Assembly: GCA_020057555.1 (NCBI GenBank)
Contig: JAGVFR010000013.1
Location: forward strand, 1 to 61,715
Direction: 5' to 3'
Source of the DNA: a bacterium
Lineage (GTDB): Bacteria > Patescibacteriota > Patescibacteriia > UBA9934 > GWF2-40-263
DNA length: 61,715 nucleotides
This document shows, piece by piece, positions 7,449 to 57,419 of this stretch. The notes under the pieces were generated by a model, which searched no databases, was not told where the DNA came from, and saw only the letters and a list, made by a program, of their open reading frames with translations. The position numbers and the translations under genes are program-made. Every line of letters starts with the position of its first letter. Positions within the stretch are counted from its first letter, which is position 1.

Positions 7449-8696
7449 ATGTCAAGAGAAGAACTCAACCAAGAAACATTTTTCGGACTGGGAATAGCTC
7501 CAACACTGTTAGAAAGACTCGAAAAGCTTGGATTTAAGCATCCAACACCAATTCAATTCAAAGCAATTCCAGTTGCCGCAACAGGCGAAGATCTTATTGG
7601 AATTGCGCAAACCGGCACTGGAAAAACACTGGCTTTCACGATTCCAATGCTTCAGCAAATGTCTGCACGTTCAAAAATGGGGCTTGTACTCCTCCCTACT
7701 CGCGAGCTTGCTGTTCAGGTTGATGAGGTCTTGCGCAAAATTGGTTTAACAATGGGTCTTCGCACAGCAGTGCTAATCGGCGGAGTACCAATGAGTCCGC
7801 AAATCAGACAACTTCGCGCAAAACCTCACGTGATTGTTGCAACACCTGGTCGTCTTATTGATCATCTTGAACAAAAAAACTTGAAGCTGGATAGAGTTGG
7901 AGTGTTGGTGCTAGATGAAGCGGATCGAATGCTTGATATGGGATTTGCGCCTCAACTTAAAAAAATTCTTGTTACTGTTCCAACTGATCGTCAAACAATG
8001 TTGTTTTCAGCGACAATGCCGGAGGAGATTGCAAAGATCGCGCGAACATACATGAAACAGCCATTGCGCATCGAGGTTGCTCCATCTGGAACAACGATCG
8101 AAAAAGTTGATCAGGAAGTTTACATTGTTTCAAAAACTGAAAAGGCTCAACTGCTCGAACGTTTACTCAAAGAATACAAAGGCACGGTTCTTTTGTTCAC
8201 TCGCACAAAACATGGCGCAACAAAAGTCGCGCGCATGGTGAAACTAATGCATCATTCAGTTACGGAGATCCATTCCAACCGTTCACAAAACCAACGCCAA
8301 GATGCTATACGAGGTTTTTCATCTGGCAAGTATCGTGTTTTGGTTGCAACAGATATTGCCGCTAGAGGGATTGATGTAAAAAACATCGAACTTGTTTTGA
8401 ATTTTGATTTACCGGATCATTTGGAAGATTATGTTCACCGTATTGGACGAACAGGACGAGCAGGCAAAGCTGGCAAAGCGATTTCGTTCGCGGCGCCTGA
8501 ACAAAAAGCAGATGTCCGCGGAATTGAAAGACTAATTAGAAAAACACTTGCAATGAAAACTCCATCAGGAGAACCTGTTGCGCCAGAACAGCCTCGGCAA
8601 TATCATCACACACCACGAAACAGACGAACTGATTCTGATTTTCGTGGTCAATCACGAAATCGACGTAGTCCAAGACAGCAAAGCCATCATCGTTAA
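7449..8696 (+). CDS. DEAD-box ATP-dependent RNA helicase
   Basis: AQTGTGKT, DEAD, SAT and HRIGRTGRAG motifs; basic C-terminal tail. Confidence 0.95.
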   Translation: MSREELNQETFFGLGIAPTLLERLEKLGFKHPTPIQFKAIPVAATGEDLIGIAQTGTGKTLAFTIPMLQQMSARSKMGLVLLPTRELAVQVDEVLRKIGLTMGLRTAVLIGGVPMSPQIRQLRAKPHVIVATPGRLIDHLEQKNLKLDRVGVLVLDEADRMLDMGFAPQLKKILVTVPTDRQTMLFSATMPEEIAKIARTYMKQPLRIEVAPSGTTIEKVDQEVYIVSKTEKAQLLERLLKEYKGTVLLFTRTKHGATKVARMVKLMHHSVTEIHSNRSQNQRQDAIRGFSSGKYRVLVATDIAARGIDVKNIELVLNFDLPDHLEDYVHRIGRTGRAGKAGKAISFAAPEQKADVRGIERLIRKTLAMKTPSGEPVAPEQPRQYHHTPRNRRTDSDFRGQSRNRRSPRQQSHHR

Positions 8697-11377: not shown

Positions 11378-13183
11378 TCAAAAATGATTTAATTCTGAAA
11401 GAAGCCGTTTAACAGTTTCTTGATCGCCAGCATGTTCTGCTTGGCGTAACTCCATCGCAATATTTTTGCGTTTGTTCTGCGCTTTAGAATGACGCAGAAG
11501 CAAAAAGAGCATATTTAGTTGTTCCTGCACGTTTTCGGTTGGCAATTGTGAAAACGCCGTTTCAGCGAGAAAATAAATTTCTATGAGAAGCTTTACAAGG
11601 TCTTCTCTTGACTCGCTTTTTAGGTGATTTTCAAGCCTCGAAAAAAAAGATTGTTTTTGTGCAGTGTTGCCAGAATTGTAGAGCCTTTTGGCTATTGTGT
11701 AAAGCTCAACGGCTAATGGGGAGCTGTTTTCTGGAAAAGGGATGTCCATCGAAAACTCTGGATACGCGCTTGGGTTCATCACATAAAGTCCAAGGATCAA
11801 CAATGATGCCCTCTCTTCTTTTGAGGTTGTTGAAGTCGTTTTTGGTTGAACAACTTTTGTCTTCAATTTGTCGTGATCTGATTTTGTTGGAGCAGGAAGA
11901 TGCGATCGAAGAATCGATGTGTCAATTCCAAGAAGTTTCGCGATCTCGTTCAACCAATGTTCTTGTTCAACAACGTCCGTTATTTCAACAAGCGCTGGGA
12001 TGAGTTCCTGCGAAACAGTTTTTTTATCATCAATGTTTGTTAAATTTTTTCCTTGAATCACGCGAGCAATTAGATATTCCATGAAAGGCACTGATGAAGC
12101 TGAAAGTTTTTGCCATGCGGCTGGATCTTTTTGCGCAAGTTCGTCTGGATCTTTTGAACCTGCTGGAAGAATAATCGCGCGAACATCAAACCCAAGTGAA
12201 CGAGCGATTGAAACTCCACGTTTTGCCGCTTTGAGCCCTGCCGCGTCTTGATCAAAACAAAAAACAAGTTTTTTTGTGTATCGCGCAAGAAGTCGCAACT
12301 GATCTTCTGTTAAAGCTGTTCCTGAACTTGCGACAACGTTTTCAACTCCTGCTTTGTGTGAACCAACAACATCTAAATTTCCTTCAACGACGACAGCACA
12401 ATCTTTTTGTTTGATTGAAGTTTTAGCAAGATCAAGGCCGTAAAGCAATGATCCTTTGTGATAGATTGGAGTTTCAGGTGAGTTGATGTATTTGGAAAGA
12501 GAAGCTAAAGAGGCTAAAGAAGTTGAAGAAGCTGGAAGCAGACGCGCGGTAAAGCCGACAGTCTTCCCATGATGATCTCGAAGCGGAATCATTAGACGAT
12601 CACGAAAACGATCAATCAATCCAGAACCTGATCGTTTTTTTTGTCCAAGACCGGCTGTGATAATTTCATTTTCAGAATATCCACGCTTGAGCAAAAATTG
12701 TGTCAGAGCATCCCAGTCTGCTGGCGAGTAACCGAGCTTGAATTTTTCACAAAGTTCAAGCGTGATACCGCGTCCACTTACATACACACGAACCAATTCA
12801 GCAATTTGAGAACCTGCAAATACTTTTTGATAATATCGCGCCGCAAGATCATTGATCTCGTACAAACGTTGTTTAACATTGCTTTCAGTTGTTGGAAGTC
12901 TGCGAACTTCAACACCGGTTTTTTGTCCAAGGTGCATTAGCGCTTCGGAAAAATCCATCCCTTCCATTTTCATGACAAACGAAAAACAATCGCCCCCTTC
13001 CCCGCAACCAAAGCAATGCCAAATTTGGCGATCTGAGGAAACATGAAAAGAAGGGGTTTTTTCAGGGTGAAAAGGACAAATCGCGCGGAAGCCGTGCGTT
13101 CCTGCTGGCTTTAACGTCAAATACTCGCCGATGAGTTCGACGATATCGAGTTTTTGTTTAATTTCATCGCGAGGATCTGACAC
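11378..13183 (-). CDS. dnaG: DNA primase DnaG
   Basis: Zinc finger CPFHPEKTPSFHVSSDRQIWHCFGCG; TOPRIM VVVEGNLDV...DQDAAG. Confidence 0.95.
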   Translation of the reverse strand: MSDPRDEIKQKLDIVELIGEYLTLKPAGTHGFRAICPFHPEKTPSFHVSSDRQIWHCFGCGEGGDCFSFVMKMEGMDFSEALMHLGQKTGVEVRRLPTTESNVKQRLYEINDLAARYYQKVFAGSQIAELVRVYVSGRGITLELCEKFKLGYSPADWDALTQFLLKRGYSENEIITAGLGQKKRSGSGLIDRFRDRLMIPLRDHHGKTVGFTARLLPASSTSLASLASLSKYINSPETPIYHKGSLLYGLDLAKTSIKQKDCAVVVEGNLDVVGSHKAGVENVVASSGTALTEDQLRLLARYTKKLVFCFDQDAAGLKAAKRGVSIARSLGFDVRAIILPAGSKDPDELAQKDPAAWQKLSASSVPFMEYLIARVIQGKNLTNIDDKKTVSQELIPALVEITDVVEQEHWLNEIAKLLGIDTSILRSHLPAPTKSDHDKLKTKVVQPKTTSTTSKEERASLLILGLYVMNPSAYPEFSMDIPFPENSSPLAVELYTIAKRLYNSGNTAQKQSFFSRLENHLKSESREDLVKLLIEIYFLAETAFSQLPTENVQEQLNMLFLLLRHSKAQNKRKNIAMELRQAEHAGDQETVKRLLSELNHF

Positions 13184-13273: not shown

Positions 13274-13306
13274 TCTATGTCCTGAGTCAAAAGTATGGAG
13301 GACATC

Positions 13307-14128
13307 ATGGCTGACAAAGGAAACTTGCTGAAAATCACATTCACTGACGAGGGTGAACTCGTAGTTGAATACCCCGGAGGAATTCGAGATCGAACCGGGA
13401 TATTCACCTCGCTCCAAGAAAAACGCACGGTTCTCGAGTTTGCCATGACAACCGCAGGACAAACTCTTCTCATGAGACAAAGGGGACGGGAAATTCACGA
13501 CCCGCTCACAAGTCTTTTGCGTCGTCAACCTGGCCGCGAGTTAATTCAACAGCAATTGGTACGAATTGCGGCAATGCCATTTACAGGGACGATTTCAATC
13601 ATCCTGATGGATCTTGATCACTTCGGAATACTCAACAAGCAATATGGTATGAGTGTTGGAGATGAAGTGCTCCGCTGGTTCGCACATATTCTCACCAGAA
13701 GAACAAGAAGTTCTGATGTGATTGTGCGATGGGGTGGCGAAGAGTTCCTGGTCTTTACCTCTGCGGGTCTGGCACCGGACGAACGTGGCAAGGCTCGCGA
13801 CAGAGACACTTCGACTAACGCCTTTGTCCAAACAGGTGCCACAGATAGAAGTCTGGGACCAGTTCTGAACAATGGAGAGATAGTCGCTGGTCGTTTCATG
13901 ACAAGTGCTGAGGCTGGACCATGTATGGTTGGTGGTTTAGCGATCAAACAACGAGTTACGATTGCTGTGGCAACACACATCATCACTTCAGCTGAAGACA
14001 GAGACACACTCGCCGAAGGTGTGTTCGAAGGTCTATTCGAACAAGCCGATGCTCTTCTTCGAAAAGCAAAGACTGATGGGCAACGTGGACGGATCTTCTC
14101 TTTCAACAAAGCCATGCAAATCAAGTAA
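13307..14128 (+). CDS. stand-alone GGDEF-domain protein (diguanylate-cyclase-like) with an internal insertion
   Basis: DPLTSLLRR, DLDHFGILNKQYGMSVGDEVL, RWGGEEF, ADALLRKAKTDGQRGRIF. A ~50-aa insert sits after the GGEEF strand. Start taken at the ATG after GGAGGACATC. Confidence 0.75.
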   Translation: MADKGNLLKITFTDEGELVVEYPGGIRDRTGIFTSLQEKRTVLEFAMTTAGQTLLMRQRGREIHDPLTSLLRRQPGRELIQQQLVRIAAMPFTGTISIILMDLDHFGILNKQYGMSVGDEVLRWFAHILTRRTRSSDVIVRWGGEEFLVFTSAGLAPDERGKARDRDTSTNAFVQTGATDRSLGPVLNNGEIVAGRFMTSAEAGPCMVGGLAIKQRVTIAVATHIITSAEDRDTLAEGVFEGLFEQADALLRKAKTDGQRGRIFSFNKAMQIK

Positions 14129-14144: not shown

Positions 14145-14170
14145 GCGCCTTTAACAAAAGGCGCTTTTTT
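14145..14170 (+). terminator. intrinsic terminator
   Basis: GCGCCTTT-AACA-AAAGGCGC followed by TTTTTT. Confidence 0.75.
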
Positions 14171-14208
14171 GATTAATTTGTTCTAATTGTGTAAACTTTC
14201 GTGCGTTC

Positions 14209-14296
14209 GGAGAGATCGCATAGTGGTCGATTGCGCGCGCTTGGAAAGCGCGTATACCGAAAGGTATCGAGGGTTCGAATCCCTCTCTCTCCGCCA
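14209..14296 (+). tRNA. tRNA-Ser (anticodon GGA)
   Basis: 88-nt class II tRNA: acceptor GGAGAGA/TCTCTCC, anticodon loop TTGGAAA, long variable arm ATACC-GAAA-GGTAT, T-arm GAGGG-TTCGAAT-CCCTC, GCCA end. Confidence 0.9.
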
Positions 14297-14346: not shown

Positions 14347-14462
14347 GGAGGGATTCGAACGCCGGAGCCATATGCCGTCAGTAGACGGCATGGCGAGGCG
14401 GTGGCCAGACCTCGGCGAGTTGACGAGCCGAGAGTCGAGGTCGAATCCCTCTCTCTCCGCCA
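14347..14462 (+). other. tRNA-like GC-rich element repeating the 3' end of tRNA-Ser (pseudo-tRNA, att-like duplication, or unknown ncRNA)
   Basis: Ends ...TCGAGG-TCGAATCCCTCTCTCTCCGCCA, nearly identical to the last ~29 nt of tRNA-Ser. The 5' GGAGGGA can pair with TCTCTCC. No standard D-arm or anticodon arm. Contains the perfect hairpin ATGCCGTC-AGTA-GACGGCAT. Confidence 0.35.
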
Positions 14463-14488: not shown

Positions 14489-15019
14489 ATGAAAATCGGG
14501 GTTGGGTCAAAAAATAAAACTAAAGTTAATGCTGTTACGGAAGTGCTTAACGACTGTCCAATGTTTGCTGATGCAGAAATTGAAGGCGTTGATGTTCAAG
14601 TCGAGCAATTCGGTCATCCAAAAAGTCTTGATGAAACAGTCGCTGGAGCGATTGATCGTGCAAAACAAGCATACGTTAATCACGACTTTGGTTTTGGAAT
14701 TGAAGGCGGACTTATGAAAGTTCCTCAAACCAAATCCGGATATATGGAAGTCGCGGTTTGCGCGATTTTCGATGGCAAGCAAATTCACTTGGGTCTTTCA
14801 CAAGCGTGCGAATGGCCAAAAAAAGTTCTAGAAAAAATACTAGAAGGTCTTGATGGAAGTCAAGCAATGAAAGCAGTTGGTTTAACTCAACATGAAAAAT
14901 TGGGAGAACACGAAGGTCTTGTTGGAATTTTAACAAAAGGGCGTACGAACCGCACTGAATTCAACAAAGGCGCTGTTGTGATGGCTCTCATGCATTTGGA
15001 GAATCCGGAACATTATTAA
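14489..15019 (+). CDS. yjjX: inosine/xanthosine triphosphatase (YjjX/DUF84 family)
   Basis: MKIGVGSKNKTKVNAV..., GFGIEGGL, GLVGILTKGRTNR, AVVMAL resemble YjjX. Confidence 0.7.
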   Translation: MKIGVGSKNKTKVNAVTEVLNDCPMFADAEIEGVDVQVEQFGHPKSLDETVAGAIDRAKQAYVNHDFGFGIEGGLMKVPQTKSGYMEVAVCAIFDGKQIHLGLSQACEWPKKVLEKILEGLDGSQAMKAVGLTQHEKLGEHEGLVGILTKGRTNRTEFNKGAVVMALMHLENPEHY

Positions 15020-15073
15020 AAAGAGATCCTTCGGCTTATTGCCTCAGGATGACGCAAGAAAGTCAACTTGAAA

Positions 15074-15136
15074 TTCGCCATTGACAAATGGCGAATTTTT
15101 TATTAGTCTGGGAACTTTCCAGAACATCTCTGGAAA
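15074..15136 (+). promoter_or_regulatory. terminator-promoter-operator module, copy 1
   Basis: Hairpin TTCGCCATT-GACA-AATGGCGAA plus TTTTTT. The same bases give TTGACA (15081), a 17-nt spacer and TAGTCT. A perfect palindrome TTTCCAGA-ACATC-TCTGGAAA follows at 15116-15136. Confidence 0.6.
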
Positions 15137-15149
15137 AAGCGGAGGAAAA

Positions 15150-16154
15150 ATGAGCAAGTGGACTTTCAACGCAATCCAAGTCAGACAAGATGGCCAAATC
15201 GAAAAGGTTGGACTGTCACCGCATCAATTCACGCGAATCGACAAATATATAGCTGCACTTGAGGCGGCCGCAAGTTCAACCGTTGCCAATCCGATTTTCT
15301 CTCAATACTTTGTCAGAGAGAGCGTTGTGCCAGTACTTGGTGCAATTGTACCGGCTGGCAACATCGAATACGGCCTGTGCCAAGCACTTCATGGCGAAGA
15401 GGCCATTGTGGCCGCGTATCGAAGTAGGTGTGGCAGATCTACTCAAGACGTAGTTATCGGAATCATTGCCGGAAGTCCTGGCAACATCGCGACACCTTGT
15501 GGAAACTGTCGAGATATCTTACTCGATGATCTTGGCACTGATTTCGAAATCGTGTCTGGCGTGGCAGACGGCGGAGAAGCGGTCGTGGCTAACATGAGCC
15601 ACTTTCTGTTTTCAAAGTTCAAGACCTTGAGCACAATCGAAATCCATCCTGACTTGGATAACATGATCAAAGTAACAATTCACCATGGCGATCTTTTGGT
15701 GAACGACGCGTTCTCGCCAAAAAACGTTCACCCTGAACGCAAATATCACGCGCTCATTGCAACCAAAGTTGAGAGGTTCGTCGGCGCGCACGATGTGATG
15801 TGTGATTATCATCCTATCTACGCGCTTCGCGACGCTATTCGCCAAGCAAGACGAAAACACGATCCGTTTGTTCAATCGGTCGTGATTGTAAGCAAAGGCT
15901 CCGGCGAAAAAGCGCCTCATGTCATGTACAAGGATCGTCAGCATCTGCTGTCGCTCAATCTACAAGCAGAATTGCTCGCAAAAGAAGAAAACGATCCACC
16001 AGTCTTTCTCGCAACATACGATGATAAACACAAGGTAACTGGACTGTGGCAAACAAGCGTAAAGCAATGGTTGCCTCTTCCCTTCACTTCTCGCAACTTC
16101 GGCCAGGAACACATTGAGTTACTGACCAACTACTACAAAGGTATAAGGAGATAA
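15150..16154 (+). CDS. two-domain cytidine-deaminase-like protein
   Basis: LHGEEAIVAAY and TPCGNCRDILLD match the CDA zinc motifs (H/C-A-E, PCxxC). The second half is CDA-fold-like but lacks the Glu and Cys ligands (DYHPIYALRDAI). Ends LPLPFTSRNFG, similar to the CDA LLPxxFGP tail. SD GCGGAGG. Confidence 0.6.
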   Translation: MSKWTFNAIQVRQDGQIEKVGLSPHQFTRIDKYIAALEAAASSTVANPIFSQYFVRESVVPVLGAIVPAGNIEYGLCQALHGEEAIVAAYRSRCGRSTQDVVIGIIAGSPGNIATPCGNCRDILLDDLGTDFEIVSGVADGGEAVVANMSHFLFSKFKTLSTIEIHPDLDNMIKVTIHHGDLLVNDAFSPKNVHPERKYHALIATKVERFVGAHDVMCDYHPIYALRDAIRQARRKHDPFVQSVVIVSKGSGEKAPHVMYKDRQHLLSLNLQAELLAKEENDPPVFLATYDDKHKVTGLWQTSVKQWLPLPFTSRNFGQEHIELLTNYYKGIRR

Positions 16155-16171
16155 AGTCCTCTCCGACACGG

Positions 16172-16229
16172 CCGCTATTGACAAATGGCGGTTTTTTTGT
16201 TATTTTTTCTATTCCAGAGTGTTTCTGGA
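16172..16229 (+). promoter_or_regulatory. terminator-promoter-operator module, copy 2
   Basis: Hairpin CCGCTATT-GACA-AATGGCGG plus TTTTTTT. TTGACA (16178), 17-nt spacer, TATTTT. Palindrome TCCAGA-GTGTT-TCTGGA at 16213-16229. Confidence 0.6.
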
Positions 16230-16297
16230 TAAGCCAGTGGCTGGGCCGAAAACATACAGCCAACTTGGTCCTTTGGACCATAGGAAGGAGAAGAGTA

Positions 16298-17041
16298 ATG
16301 CCTCTTCGCACGGGTCGACAGGTTCCGATCGGCAACGGGTCCACTCTCATGATACTCGGTGTTGAGCCAGTGGATCGAGAGCTTTGGGAAAGCCACGAGA
16401 CAGTTCAAGGTCATTGGGTCTACTTCATGGCGCACATTCAGAGTCATGTAGAACCTGCATATGTCAGAGAAGCTATCGTTCACATTCACGCACGAGCGAT
16501 CTGGAAGCTTATGTGCCCGAACAAGCTCGAACAACCACACACAATTCTCATCTCACCTCATGATGAAAGCAACTGGATGAGAGTGATGTTCAGACGACGG
16601 ATCGAAGGTGAACTGTATGATCACAAAAAGTTCCTCCACAACGAAGCGAAAAATCTCAAACACATCTGGCAACTTGTTCGTTACGCTGAATCCGGCTATA
16701 CGAATGAGAACAAGATGTTCAGCACGAGCAAGCTCGGAAGAGAGTGTCCGATTCAGCCATGTCACATAAGAATCGAGGACGGTGTACGACTAGGTCTCGG
16801 TATACCTGAAGCAGAAAAAACCGCGCACCTCATTCTGACATTAGCCAGAGTGATGAGCAGTTGGGGTCCTCGAACAGCCGACTTGTTGGTACTGGGTCTT
16901 AAGATGAAGAGAAGTGAGATATTGAACGGTCTCAACTATCTCATCGAGAACGACTTTCTTGCGAGCGAACCCGATGAAGTTGGATACATCATCCGCGAGA
17001 AATTCGTTGTTCATTGCTGGCGTGCTTTCTTGCACAGCTAA
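16298..17041 (+). CDS. hypothetical protein (247 aa), possible C-terminal winged-helix
   Basis: ATG follows GGAAGGAGAAGAGTA. The C-terminal region MKRSEILNGLNYLIENDFLASEPDEVGYIIREKF looks wHTH-like. No family recognised. Confidence 0.5.
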   Translation: MPLRTGRQVPIGNGSTLMILGVEPVDRELWESHETVQGHWVYFMAHIQSHVEPAYVREAIVHIHARAIWKLMCPNKLEQPHTILISPHDESNWMRVMFRRRIEGELYDHKKFLHNEAKNLKHIWQLVRYAESGYTNENKMFSTSKLGRECPIQPCHIRIEDGVRLGLGIPEAEKTAHLILTLARVMSSWGPRTADLLVLGLKMKRSEILNGLNYLIENDFLASEPDEVGYIIREKFVVHCWRAFLHS

Positions 17042-17057
17042 CACTTCACCACCTTGG

Positions 17058-17088
17058 CTCTTGTCATTTCTCTGACAAGAGTTTTTTT
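17058..17088 (+). terminator. intrinsic terminator
   Basis: CTCTTGTCA-loop-TGACAAGAG followed by TTTTTTT. Confidence 0.75.
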
Positions 17089-17091
17089 ATT

Positions 17092-18797: not shown

Positions 18798-19556
18798 TTA
18801 TTCCAATTGCTTCCATAGAGAATCAAAGATCATTGTTTGTGTCAATGCAATGGCTGTATCGTCAATAATAACTCCAAAGAGTTTCTTTTTTTCATCAACT
18901 GACACATAAGCAGTTTTGCCTGGATAGATGAAAATGTACGTTGGAGCTTTATCTTCTTTTGTAAGCCATCTTCGCTCATCCAAACCAGATGTGTTTCCTC
19001 CATGCCCAATCGCGATTGCTCGTACTCGAACTTTTTCTCGAATACGATTTTTTGTATATCCTGGCCATGCGTTTAGAATCAAATCGCGAATTGCGGCTGA
19101 CGAATACACACGATACATTTTGTCGAGCGAATGGGCGCACGTCTGAATTACATCTTCCAAAATCGAACGAACGCCCACCTCGCCCTCGTAGTAAAAAACA
19201 GTAGGACGGTGCTGACTCCATCCAATAAGTTGTTGGAGATTTGGAATAATCTCTTGCAGTTTCAAACGCGCTTCTTGCGCTGCGACTTCTCTACGCGTTG
19301 CAACACCCGTCAGCTTTTTGGGATCCTCTGCCGTAAAGAATCGATGCGTTTTCGCATCCACGAAACTGACAAGGCCCAGATCCATAAGACGTTTGAGCGT
19401 GTCATAAGTAGTTCCTCGATTAAAACCGCTTTCTTGCGCAATCTCACGCAATGGCGCGGTTCCCAGCTTCATGAGAGCGATATAAATTTCGTAGTCTTTT
19501 TGACGAAGACCAATCGCTCCCAATGTCTCCTCTGAAAGTGTATGACGTTTAAGCAT
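18798..19556 (-). CDS. TrmB-family transcriptional regulator
   Basis: GLRQKDYEIYIALMKLGTAPLREIAQESGFNRGTTYDTLKRLMDLGLVSFV. Confidence 0.75.
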   Translation of the reverse strand: MLKRHTLSEETLGAIGLRQKDYEIYIALMKLGTAPLREIAQESGFNRGTTYDTLKRLMDLGLVSFVDAKTHRFFTAEDPKKLTGVATRREVAAQEARLKLQEIIPNLQQLIGWSQHRPTVFYYEGEVGVRSILEDVIQTCAHSLDKMYRVYSSAAIRDLILNAWPGYTKNRIREKVRVRAIAIGHGGNTSGLDERRWLTKEDKAPTYIFIYPGKTAYVSVDEKKKLFGVIIDDTAIALTQTMIFDSLWKQLE

Positions 19557-19636
19557 AGGCGTTAAGATAAATACGACAATTTGTGGATAAACAAAAAATA
19601 CCCTTGAAATAAGGGTATTTTTTTAATCAGATTTTG

Positions 19637-20392
19637 TCAATTTTTTTTCGACAACTTTTTGAAATAAAACCAAAAACCAAACACAACCATTACCGTTGCC
19701 ACATACTGCGCGGGTGTAAATCCAAAATATCTAACATCAATAATAGGTCCGTTAGTAGCGCGCAAAAAATCAAGTAGAAAACGAGCTATCCCCTTCCAAA
19801 CTAAAAAGACCACAATGTAAGTTCCAACTTTTGCTTTTCGATGAGCAAGCAGTAGGAAAAGACAAAATAATAGCAAACCATTTAATGAAAGGTATAAACC
19901 GAGATCATGTCGAACTCCGTCTGGAAATTTCACTCCAAGAAAAAAATTTGTCAGTCGTCCAGGGTGTTCGTGCAATAAAAAACAACCAATGCGTCCAATA
20001 AAAAATCCAAGAGGTAATCCAAAAATTGCTGTATCTGCGTAAGACCAAATATCAACACGACTTTTGTGTAAAAATAAAATTCCGAAAATTACTGAACCAA
20101 TGAATCCGCCCATCACTGACATTCCACCATTCCAAAACTTCAAAAGTTCAATCGGAGAATTAAAATAAAAAGCCGGTTCGTAGATGATGTGAAATAGTCG
20201 CGCAAAAATCATTGCGCCAATAATCACCCAAAAAGCTAGGTCCCAAATTAAATTTGAATCTTGTCCTCGGCGTTTTGCCATCCATGCTGAAACTGATGCA
20301 CCAGCCAAAATACCAAGTGCCACAAATAGACCCCAAACTTGGATTGGTATTGGACCGAGATGAATTACATCGAGATGGAAATATGGAAGCAT
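19637..20392 (-). CDS. lgt: prolipoprotein diacylglyceryl transferase
   Basis: IQVWGLFVALGILAG..., GRIGCFL, polytopic; typical Lgt. Confidence 0.9.
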   Translation of the reverse strand: MLPYFHLDVIHLGPIPIQVWGLFVALGILAGASVSAWMAKRRGQDSNLIWDLAFWVIIGAMIFARLFHIIYEPAFYFNSPIELLKFWNGGMSVMGGFIGSVIFGILFLHKSRVDIWSYADTAIFGLPLGFFIGRIGCFLLHEHPGRLTNFFLGVKFPDGVRHDLGLYLSLNGLLLFCLFLLLAHRKAKVGTYIVVFLVWKGIARFLLDFLRATNGPIIDVRYFGFTPAQYVATVMVVFGFWFYFKKLSKKN

Positions 20393-22224: not shown

Positions 22225-24809
<2,585 letters not shown>

Positions 24810-24833
24810 GATGTTTGAAAAATTCTGATCCAA

Positions 24834-24853
24834 CCCACGGCTAAAGCCGTGGG
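24834..24853. repeat. REP hairpin 3
   Basis: CCCACGGCT-AA-AGCCGTGGG immediately upstream of the RAYT gene. Confidence 0.8.
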
Positions 24854-24860
24854 TTACCAA

Positions 24861-27668: not shown

Positions 27669-28325
27669 TTACTTGCGGACAAACAGAAAGCGGCAGTCGG
27701 CAAGCCACCTGCGGTCGAACCAGTAGGAGCCGAAGATGCGCCTTGCGGAAATGCTGTGCAACGCAGCGAGGCACCGGCCGCCGCAGTCCATCGCGAACGA
27801 ACCAAGAGCGATGAGCAGAAACTGACTCTGGAGGTCAGGATTCTTCTTCTGGAACTCATATGCTTCGATGTGAGTTGCTGGACGATAGCCGAACTTGTCC
27901 ATCTCGACTATTGCGTCTTCGGACTTGATCTCCCTATTGAAATGCTTCACAAGGAATATCTCGTAACCTGGAGTCTCGGCAATATTAACGCAAGAAGCGT
28001 GCTTATTGAATGGACGACCGTCAAATATGATCGAAACATTACCATTGCCGAACTCCTGCTCGAGCTCGGAGAATGACGGAAACGGAGCATAGGATACTGG
28101 AACAAAATACTCGTTTTCGACGAGACATATCACGGATTGTCCTTTCAGCCAATCCTCGTGCGCAAGATCGACCATTTTCTTAAGTGTTTTTCTTCCTTGA
28201 GGCGTTACGAGCCGATAGATGGCTTCAAATGGAACCGACTTCTCACGTGTCAATTCCATCAGGCCACTCACAAGCCCTGCAAAGTATCCAGCACCGCTCT
28301 CGATCTCTGACACTCGTTTTCTCAT
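27669..28325 (-). CDS. hypothetical protein with conserved C-terminal ...GYRPAT...LIALGS...RFLFVRK domain
   Basis: Start at the ATG after GAGGTGTGTC. GC-rich. I remember the C-terminal pattern from other uncultured-bacterium hypothetical proteins, but no function is known. Confidence 0.5.
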   Translation of the reverse strand: MRKRVSEIESGAGYFAGLVSGLMELTREKSVPFEAIYRLVTPQGRKTLKKMVDLAHEDWLKGQSVICLVENEYFVPVSYAPFPSFSELEQEFGNGNVSIIFDGRPFNKHASCVNIAETPGYEIFLVKHFNREIKSEDAIVEMDKFGYRPATHIEAYEFQKKNPDLQSQFLLIALGSFAMDCGGRCLAALHSISARRIFGSYWFDRRWLADCRFLFVRK

Positions 28326-28394
28326 GACACACCTCATTTGGTTTGGCTTGCCCCTCATCTAGCACCATGCCAGACCCCAGACTCGCCATTCCTT

Positions 28395-28523
28395 ATTGAG
28401 ACCTCTGAAAAAAACGATCTGCTCGTGCTTCGGCTAAGAAGACCCTCACCGTAGCGATTGCTACGCCTCGGATTTTCTTAGTCTCCAGCACGTCGCATCT
28501 CATCTTTTTTCAAAGGTCTCAAT
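28395..28523 (-). repeat. long imperfect hairpin in the 5' leader of the 27669..28325 gene
   Basis: 19-nt arms ATTGAGACCTCTGAAAAAA / TTTTTTCAAAGGTCTCAAT enclose ~90 nt with nested pairings (CTAAGAA/TTCTTAG, GTAGC-GAT-TGCTAC). Confidence 0.55.
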
Positions 28524-28548
28524 TTTGCAGAGATCTTTATCAAAAATG

Positions 28549-28597
28549 CCAGAATTATCTGGACAAATAACGTATCAAAATATAACAATATTGTCAA
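28549..28597 (-). promoter_or_regulatory. promoter plus CCAGA/TCTGG palindrome for the 27669..28325 gene
   Basis: Minus strand: TTGACA (28597-28592), 17-nt spacer, TACGTT, then TCCAGA-TAAT-TCTGG. The -35 overlaps the rnhA stop codon. Confidence 0.5.
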
Positions 28598-29010
28598 TGC
28601 CTCAATGAATCTAAAACTTTATTCACCAACTCATCAGCTTCTTTGTTTTTTTCACGACGAACATGCGTGAATGTAACTTTACGAAATGAATGCAAAAGAT
28701 TCTTAACTTCTAAAAATCTTTTAGCGATTTCTGAATCTTTAACTTTGTATTCACCTTTAAGCTGACGATACGCAAGTTCTGAATCGAGATAAACTTCGAT
28801 CTGTCTGCAACCGAGCGCGCGAGCTTTTTCAAGACCAATAACAATCGCTATGTACTCAGCTTGATTGTTTGTTGTTTTGCCAAGATATTTTGAAGCTGTC
28901 GCGATTGTTTTACCTTCTTTTCCAGCGATAATTTCTTTTAATACAGCGGCTGACGCGGCAGGTCCTGGGTTTCCACGAGAACCACCGTCGGTGTAGATAC
29001 GGAGATGCAT
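28594..29010 (-). CDS. rnhA: ribonuclease HI
   Basis: IYTDGGSRGNPGPAA..., NNQAEYIAIVIGLE, REKNKEADELVN. Start at MHLRIY; the track extension reads through a word repeat. Confidence 0.9.
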   Translation of the reverse strand: MHLRIYTDGGSRGNPGPAASAAVLKEIIAGKEGKTIATASKYLGKTTNNQAEYIAIVIGLEKARALGCRQIEVYLDSELAYRQLKGEYKVKDSEIAKRFLEVKNLLHSFRKVTFTHVRREKNKEADELVNKVLDSLRH

Positions 29011-57341: not shown

Positions 57342-57419
57342 CGGAGCCGAGTTGAACTATGTCGTAGGGAACAGCGGCGACAGTCCGATGGCCCGGAAAC
57401 ATAGTTCAACTCGGCTCCG
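57342..57419. repeat. perfect 20-bp inverted repeat directly upstream of hflX
   Basis: CGGAGCCGAGTTGAACTATG - 38 nt - CATAGTTCAACTCGGCTCCG; GC-rich. Confidence 0.7.

Follow-up and report, generated by a model that had tools for sequence, protein, structure and literature searches.

Why should three unrelated genes carry the same palindrome at the predicted start of their transcripts? The question is raised by a stretch of 61,715 nucleotides (contig JAGVFR010000013.1 of assembly GCA_020057555.1), the whole of which we refer to as the window. It is a chromosomal segment of a bacterium of the Patescibacteria (candidate phyla radiation, CPR) and belongs to the groundwater Candidatus Uhrbacteria lineage, the deaminase-like protein encoded here being 82-90% identical to proteins from Uhrbacteria metagenome-assembled genomes (MAGs). 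To our knowledge almost nothing is known of gene regulation in this phylum. The palindrome, TCCAGA-N4/5-TCTGGA, lies just beyond the -10 element of the promoters of a gene for a 334-amino-acid (aa) cytidine-deaminase-like protein, of the orphan gene next to it, encoding a 247-aa protein, and of a more distant 218-aa gene (Table 1). Judged from sequence and from its conservation in relatives, the palindrome with its promoter module is a real conserved regulatory signal, and we see about an even chance that it acts mainly as a transcribed, 5'-terminal RNA stem-loop.

A palindrome at three unrelated promoters

In the window TCCAGA-N(3-7)-TCTGGA is found exactly twice, at 15118-15134 and 16213-16229, both with a centre of five nucleotides (nt), where 100 shuffles gave an expectation of 0.00. 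Relaxing the pattern to TCCAGA-N(2-8)-TCTGG adds a single site, 28549-28563 on the minus strand, with a 4-nt centre (0.14 expected), and a search for more relaxed palindromes close to promoters of the window found none. TCCAGA by itself is a common hexamer; what sets these sites apart is the pairing. An uptake-sequence or restriction-site explanation was rejected, as 49 copies make the hexamer neither scarce nor over-represented and there are three paired sites only. On the two strands of the window there are ten promoter patterns of the TTGACA-17-TAnnnT type, three of which carry the palindrome 5-8 nt past the -10 element. The arms begin at this distance in all 13 distinct sequences, which is also where the 5' end of the transcript is predicted. 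In front of the deaminase-like gene the palindrome ends 5 nt before the GGAGG Shine-Dalgarno sequence. The preliminary description of the locus had noted all of these palindromes, including the one with the 4-nt centre at the same relative position on the minus strand (5 nt past its -10 element); each is present, above chance expectation and tied in position to a promoter. It had also remarked that the palindrome is common to three GC-rich genes, and these are indeed the GC-richest genes of the window (0.48-0.50 vs 0.414 overall). They are unrelated to one another; paralogy among the three proteins was looked for and none was found.

Upstream of the deaminase-like gene five genomes have the same arms, around loops of ACATC, ACTTC, ATGTT or ACTT. 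The spacing is N5 in the window and in the related loci L047, L013 and L010, and N4 in L011. Orthologues of the deaminase-like protein at 63% identity or less have no TCCAGA; in one of these distant orthologues, L022, another hairpin, ATCCGG-N10-CCGGAT, lies 8 nt past the -10 element. The order NTPase, deaminase, a variable slot, small open reading frames (ORFs), DUF218, TrmB, Lgt is kept in close relatives, and the deaminase-like gene with its module is present and syntenic in every one of them. It had been described as an inserted gene, to be checked by its presence or absence in other genomes. Going by this synteny it is a conserved core gene, and the evolutionary reading is corrected to one in which the neighbouring orphan is gained, lost and eroded. 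The name deaminase-like can be kept in part. In 21 homologues the residues of the HxE and PCxxC zinc motifs (H81, E83, C117 and C120) never vary, cytidine deaminases of the PDB were matched at E = 0.006, a weak resemblance by sequence, and no Pfam family matched the protein even at E <= 10. Over 200 matches in Patescibacteria and DPANN show the family to be a large one.

The third site lies in front of the 218-aa gene, and the -35 element of its promoter overlaps the stop codon of an RNase H-like gene. A syntenic orthologue in L051 (66% identical) has TCCAGA-AAAGT-TCTGGG, in which the outer pair is U.G and the spacing N5, compared with N4 in the window. The family has 56 homologues; its gene precedes pilM in the window and L051, and comEC and recA in L053. 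Its structural model is confident (predicted local distance difference test, pLDDT, 88.2), and a structure search with it gave weak C-type-lectin-like matches only (E >= 0.1), nothing significant. The protein is likely to be competence- or pilus-associated, with an unmatched fold.

The 5' leader of the 218-aa gene has features of its own. It contains a 129-nt self-complementary insertion (28395-28523, minus strand) with 19-nt terminal inverted repeats, ATTGAGACCTCTGAAAAAA and TTTTTTCAAAGGTCTCAAT, which is absent from L051 and has no second copy in the window. The rest of the leader (28326-28394, minus strand) is almost identical to L051 2581-2649 despite the 66% protein identity. A homologue of 52% identity (L053, ~240-300) still has the part GGGGUC...GAUGAGGGGC, with a UCU/AGA to CCC/GGG swap. 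Apart from the insertion, the leader of the 218-aa gene is a candidate for a second structured one.

A covarying leader and the proposed action of the palindrome

In front of the 247-aa gene there is a longer leader of three helices, P1 to P3, with the palindrome as P1. In an analysis by RNAalifold and pair counting, 98.3% of cells were paired and in 10 of the 20 pairs both sides had changed, a result that was equalled in none of 500 shuffles; slid controls reached at most 2. Within P1, three of the six pairs are changed on both sides in the 247-aa family, with UCCGGA/UCCGGA in L007 and UCAGC/GCUGA in L008, and these changes are compensatory. Hardly any variation is seen in the unpaired stretches UAAGCCA, CUGGGCYR and AAAACAU. 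The leader is far better conserved than the protein, and every intact member of the family has the palindrome or a covarying equivalent at its own promoter. That the leader is conserved as coding sequence is opposed by the conserved MPLR start with its strong Shine-Dalgarno sequence and by the compensatory changes. An alternative CCAG/CUGG hairpin in place of P2 had, by inspection, no covariation support in the alignment. A covariance model and a scan of metagenomes for the core pattern found the leader with the 247-aa family alone, and a widespread RNA motif was therefore rejected. Rfam 15 matched only tRNAs in the window at the gathering threshold, and in E-value mode nothing relevant over 15000-16400 or 28250-28650. 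Searching the L007 and L008 loci for the variant palindromes (TCCGGA, TCAGC) elsewhere gave nothing informative. The leader probably controls expression of the 247-aa gene through a ligand or a protein. It is the most novel concrete product of this analysis.

On the reading that we favour, an intrinsic terminator would end the upstream gene, and the DNA of its hairpin loop would double as the -35 element of the next promoter, with the T-run falling in the promoter spacer. Transcription would start at, or 1-2 nt before, TCCAGA-N4/5-TCTGGA, and UCCAGA-loop-UCUGGA would work mainly after transcription, its base-paired 5' end guarding the mRNA from 5'-end-dependent decay. The stem-loop could also be a handle for a shared RNA-binding factor, and at the 247-aa gene it would serve as helix P1 of the family-specific leader. 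Stabilisation of mRNA by 5'-terminal stem-loops is established (review PMC3997798, citing Emory et al. 1992, Bouvet & Belasco 1992). Hairpins near the 5' end are frequent after strong promoters of the window, the first 30 nt of 7 of 13 having a minimum free energy at or below -6.7 kcal/mol, as against ~7% of random 30-mers.

We infer action at the level of RNA for four reasons. The spacing differs between N4 and N5 at orthologous sites, which a hairpin loop would tolerate easily and a dimeric operator less so. The palindrome at 16213 is P1 of the covarying leader. The arms always begin at the predicted 5' end of the transcript, where hairpins are common. Finally, the outer U.G pair of L051 and the wobbles in the terminator stems work on the sense strand only.

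The same sites can also be read as a DNA operator, with a conserved dimeric factor, other than the 247-aa protein, binding TCCAGA-N4/5-TCTGGA at +1 to +17 and repressing at least three promoters. We consider this possible, though short of probable. One candidate for the factor is the TrmB-family regulator encoded 3-4 kb downstream, and the regulon would be small, possibly joining nucleotide salvage and competence. The TrmB-family gene is syntenic in the window, L010, L011 and L013 and co-occurs with the sites, to which its product may bind. There is also a common theme, in that the 218-aa family lies by pilM or comEC/recA, a 247-aa homologue in L001 adjoins a pilus and ComF cluster, and a deaminase would fit nucleoside salvage; the neighbourhoods of the 218-aa and 247-aa genes hint at a link between competence and nucleotide salvage. 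CPR bacteria are reported to be naturally competent (PMC10633639). Against an operator of this kind speaks the half-site spacing, which shifts by 1 bp at orthologous sites in two independent cases, and so does the 247-aa family, in which the arms change compensatorily inside a leader whose other helices are clearly RNA. The promoter of the TrmB-family gene has a different palindrome, TACCCT-N7-AGGGTA, and no TCCAGA site, and outside the three gene families no more sites were found in ~290 kb of related loci.

Several observations nevertheless weigh against the RNA stem-loop. Six-bp arms that are identical at three unrelated genes and invariant in their orthologues, around a free and variable centre, are the classic signature of a DNA operator, and the site overlaps the predicted start as a lac-type operator would, its centre at ~+9/+10 also suiting a lac-type repressor. 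A purely structural hairpin needs no fixed sequence, and short A-form RNA stems are not usually read by their sequence. None of the six core pairs is G-U, the sole wobble being at the outer edge. The whole leader folds no better than shuffled sequence (z = -0.55), and the support for it is covariation in 6 sequences from ~4 lineages.

A further explanation needs no shared trans-acting factor. One ancestral module of promoter and hairpin would have been copied to three places and its arms held by pairing constraint alone. The first two copies are more alike than generic promoter modules are, stems under pairing constraint evolve slowly, and other promoters of the window bear unrelated 5' hairpins, which points to a general structural role. 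Descent by itself seems improbable, however, as the third copy matches the other two in functional hexamers only, and as distant members of the 247-aa family that are not beside the deaminase gene (L001, L004) have the same arms, so that a single ancient copy would have kept 12 nt while their surroundings changed.

The preliminary description proposed the 247-aa protein as a candidate regulator. In this scheme it would repress its own gene and control the deaminase-like gene and the gene starting at 28325, with the deaminase inserted between duplicated cassettes. Some of what was seen agrees with this. The AlphaFold (AF2) model of the protein is confident (pLDDT 84.7, predicted template modelling score 0.81) and comprises, from the N- to the C-terminus, an alpha/beta domain, a long helix and a domain resembling a winged helix-turn-helix (wHTH). 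By Foldseek the last ~80 aa superpose on the winged helices of MarR, ArsR, CodY-C and TubR (probability 0.9-0.99, root-mean-square deviation 3-4 A), and the whole chain aligns loosely to CodY, giving a CodY-like layout. A wHTH-like C-terminus is a reasonable assignment at the level of the predicted fold. The presence of the palindrome or its equivalent at the promoter of each intact family member, and the likeness of the first two modules, would also fit. On the other hand, all of the Foldseek matches have E >= 0.026, and the protein has no Pfam, PADLOC or PHROG match. The C-terminal 80 aa are acidic to neutral, with an isoelectric point of 5.0-6.3 in five of seven members, and the putative recognition helix varies between members that have the same TCCAGA arms. 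The palindrome is kept in L010, L011 and L013, in which the slot holds a different gene and whose MAGs are absent from the family's 7 matches or 20 representatives, and in L047, where both palindromes are retained and the 247-aa gene is internally deleted. The wHTH-like fold is a plausible prediction, and the 247-aa protein is probably not the cognate regulator; taken together with the syntenic, core position of the deaminase gene, this makes the scheme as originally proposed very improbable.

The slot itself is variable. In L013 and L014 it is filled by an unrelated 227-aa orphan, which hhalign gave no reason to take for a diverged form of the 247-aa gene (probability 9.6% for the L013 gene, and rejected), and in L010 and L011 by other genes (Table 1). 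L047, with 86-91% DNA identity to the window, has kept both modules and has lost the equivalent of window 16266-16858, most of the 247-aa gene; an internal 593-bp deletion (L047 ~7950-8090) joins the leader to codon ~183. L006 (330-360) has lost its promoter and leader together with 17 codons at the start of the gene; the contig has ~2x coverage, and an assembly artefact is possible there. These are two independent natural deletions. The family is tiny, with 7 proteins in one search and 20 representatives among 1.84 billion in an exhaustive profile search, its members being 33-69% identical. By this distribution the 247-aa gene is a dispensable, variable cassette that includes a promoter and leader of its own.

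Predicted terminators fused to the next promoter

The preliminary description had pointed out that the sequence before each of the first two palindromes is both an intrinsic terminator hairpin and, through a TTGACA with a 17-nt spacer to TAGTCT or TATTTT, a promoter. This is present, and it is conserved 5' of orthologues. The sequence CATTGACAAATGGCG is exact at 15079-15093 and has one mismatch at 16176-16190. The terminator stems (15070-15099 and 16170-16193) have folding energies of -16.6 and -13.2 kcal/mol (z = -6.8 and -3.7) and are followed by T-runs, 51 and 16 nt past the stop codons, so that termination is predicted at both. In the two copies TTGACA sits in the loop and upper stem of the hairpin. 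Sigma-70-type promoters, TTGACA-17-TAGTCT, TATTTT or TACGTT, are found at the three palindrome sites, with hexamers that are invariant in relatives. The hairpin of copy 1 is kept 5' of the deaminase gene in L010, L011, L013 and L047, with invariant arms in a module whose flanks vary, and its -35 element and the TAG..T of its -10 element are invariant in five relatives. The fused form of copy 2 was seen in the window and L047 alone, where it is identical; in L005 the terminator and the -35 element are apart. A promoter lies at the same distance from the 247-aa family gene in L001, L004, L005 and L008. U.G wobbles, present in the terminator stem of copy 2 and in that of L047 copy 1, fit a hairpin in the sense-strand RNA.

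To look for the same design elsewhere, a stem of at least 6 bp around a TTGACA-like hexamer was required, followed by a T-run and a -10 element at 16-18 nt. Four sites of the window matched (1858, 14151, 15081 and 16178), as did L050:4829 on another Uhrbacteria contig, with an unrelated stem. The module at 14145-14179 has no palindrome after its -10 element. No other two promoter modules of the window are as alike as copies 1 and 2 (score 18 vs mean -3.2, sd 6.1; z ~3.5), and partial homology or gene conversion between them is possible; copy 3 has just the functional hexamers in common with them. The idea of a duplicated regulatory cassette is not upheld by these sites, and the hairpin containing a -35 element is a recurrent habit of the lineage, not a special duplication.

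Two further arrangements were seen at such junctions. The Lgt terminator overlaps the promoter of the TrmB-family gene (~19600-19640, minus strand) in a different register; here the -10 element, TACCCT, is the 5' arm of TACCCT-N7-AGGGTA, after which comes a T-run, and through this palindrome TrmB could also regulate its own gene. L047 (9290-9530, minus strand), L011 (~690-930) and L013 (~322-470) have a long-hairpin element of ~190-230 nt, for which there was no Rfam match, between the NTPase gene and the deaminase promoter. The window is without it at this site, homology resuming exactly at 15075, and has a related fragment at ~57352-57409.

Known systems and the surrounding genes

The pieces are individually of known kinds, and the surprise for a specialist would be moderate. 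The stem-loops are like the 5' mRNA stabilisers of E. coli ompA and papA and of B. subtilis ermC and aprE in lying at or near the (here predicted) 5' end, 5' of the Shine-Dalgarno sequence, with compensatory pairing and a free loop; unlike those, the same 6-bp stem recurs in three unrelated transcripts and their orthologues. Repressor operators over +1 of the lacO1 type share the 6-N5-6 inverted repeat, the conserved arms and variable centre, the place just past the -10 element and the occurrence at several promoters. The TGM site of the archaeal TrmB family is TATCAC-N5-GTGATA. Such operators differ from the sites described here in that both N4 and N5 spacings occur and that one instance is inside a covarying RNA leader. 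Like Rfam-type leader RNAs and riboswitch candidates, the 247-aa leader has three covarying helices and conserved unpaired stretches and outlasts conservation of the protein. It differs from them in having no Rfam match, in serving one tiny orphan family, and in that its consensus fold does not sequester the Shine-Dalgarno sequence and there is no obvious expression platform. The overlapping terminator-promoters of compact genomes also place a promoter right after a terminator, insulating neighbours in short intergenic regions. Here the two are fused, the -35 element being the hairpin loop and the U-tract lying in the 17-bp spacer, at a minimum of four sites of the window. We know of no name for this exact arrangement, and the locus is a clear example of tiny genomes fusing terminator and promoter in ~45 bp. 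It offers a conserved, testable cis-element of three transcripts together with a candidate new structured leader RNA. A bolder proposal is that UCCAGA-N4/5-UCUGGA marks a small Uhrbacteria regulon joining DNA uptake and nucleoside salvage, to be read by some factor either at the start of the transcript or at the promoter, and that the leader is a new riboswitch-like class controlling an orphan sensor of CodY layout. We think this unlikely; if true, it would be the first cis-regulatory code described for an uncultivated phylum.

Table 1. Positions of the features discussed, in window coordinates; transcription signals and RNA helices are predictions.
Feature	Position	Strand	Details
DnaG gene	11378-13183	-	
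GGDEF protein gene	13295-14128	+	
GGDEF terminator/tRNA-Ser promoter	14145-14179	+	GCGCCTTT-aaca-AAAGGCGC and T6; loop with -35-like TTAACA, 17-nt spacer, TAATTT
tRNA-Ser(GGA)	14209-14296		
NTPase_I-T/DUF84 gene	14489-15019		
Terminator hairpin, copy 1	15070-15103	+	GAAATTCGCCATT-GACA-AATGGCGAATTTT and T-run, after NTPase_I-T gene
Promoter, copy 1 (deaminase-like gene)	15081-15109	+	TTGACA 15081-15086, 17-nt spacer, TAGTCT 15104-15109; sigma-70-type
Palindrome/5' hairpin, copy 1	15116-15136	+	TTTCCAGA-ACATC-TCTGGAAA, -9.4 kcal/mol; at predicted transcript start
Two-domain cytidine-deaminase-like gene (334 aa)	15150-16154	+	
Terminator hairpin, copy 2	16170-16199	+	GGCCGCTATT-GACA-AATGGCGGTT, U.G wobble, and T-run; ends deaminase-like gene
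Promoter, copy 2 (247-aa gene)	16178-16206	+	TTGACA 16178-16183, 17-nt spacer, TATTTT 16201-16206
Structured 5' leader RNA	16213-16297 (~85 nt)	+	three hairpins, covariation
Leader P1	16213-16218 / 16224-16229	+	the palindrome
Leader P2	16238-16243 / 16257-16262	+	UGGCUG/CAGCCA
Leader P3	16264-16271 / 16275-16283	+	CUUGGUCC/GGACC-AG, G-U variants
Leader Shine-Dalgarno sequence	16282-16290	+	
247-aa orphan gene	16298-17041	+	
247-aa gene terminator	17056-17090	+	GGCTCTTGTCA-tttctc-TGACAAGAGTT and T-run
Slot after deaminase: window, L005, L006			247-aa gene
Slot after deaminase: L013, L014			unrelated 227-aa orphan
Slot after deaminase: L010, L011			MsrBA and methyltransferase
Two small conserved ORFs	3' of 247-aa gene, before DUF218		
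DUF218 gene	downstream of small ORFs	-	
TrmB-family regulator gene	18798-19556	-	
Lgt gene	beyond TrmB-family gene	-	
218-aa gene	27669-28325	-	first gene upstream of pilM, pilin gene, prepilin peptidase gene
Third promoter	28549-28597	-	TTGACA 28597-28592, 17-nt spacer, TACGTT 28574-28569; 5 nt on TCCAGA-TAAT-TCTGG, then T5

A phage or plasmid origin was rejected, there being no PHROG or PADLOC match and no relative of the 247-aa gene in IMG/VR; blastn against phages matched tRNA-Ser alone. The GGDEF gene (13295-14128) is likewise among the GC-richest parts of the window, where just ~6% of 700-nt tiles attain 0.47. An IS200-like Y1 transposase gene (24333-24860, minus strand) adjoins the prepilin peptidase gene, and in L010 (1-130) a rve-type transposase ends directly 5' of the terminator-promoter hairpin of the deaminase gene. 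Some 140 nt downstream of tRNA-Ser(GGA) its 3' end, CGAGGGTTCGAATCCCTCTCTCTCCGCCA, recurs (14435-14462, compare 14268-14296). The direct repeat is att-like and suggests that an element once integrated at the tRNA and left a remnant.

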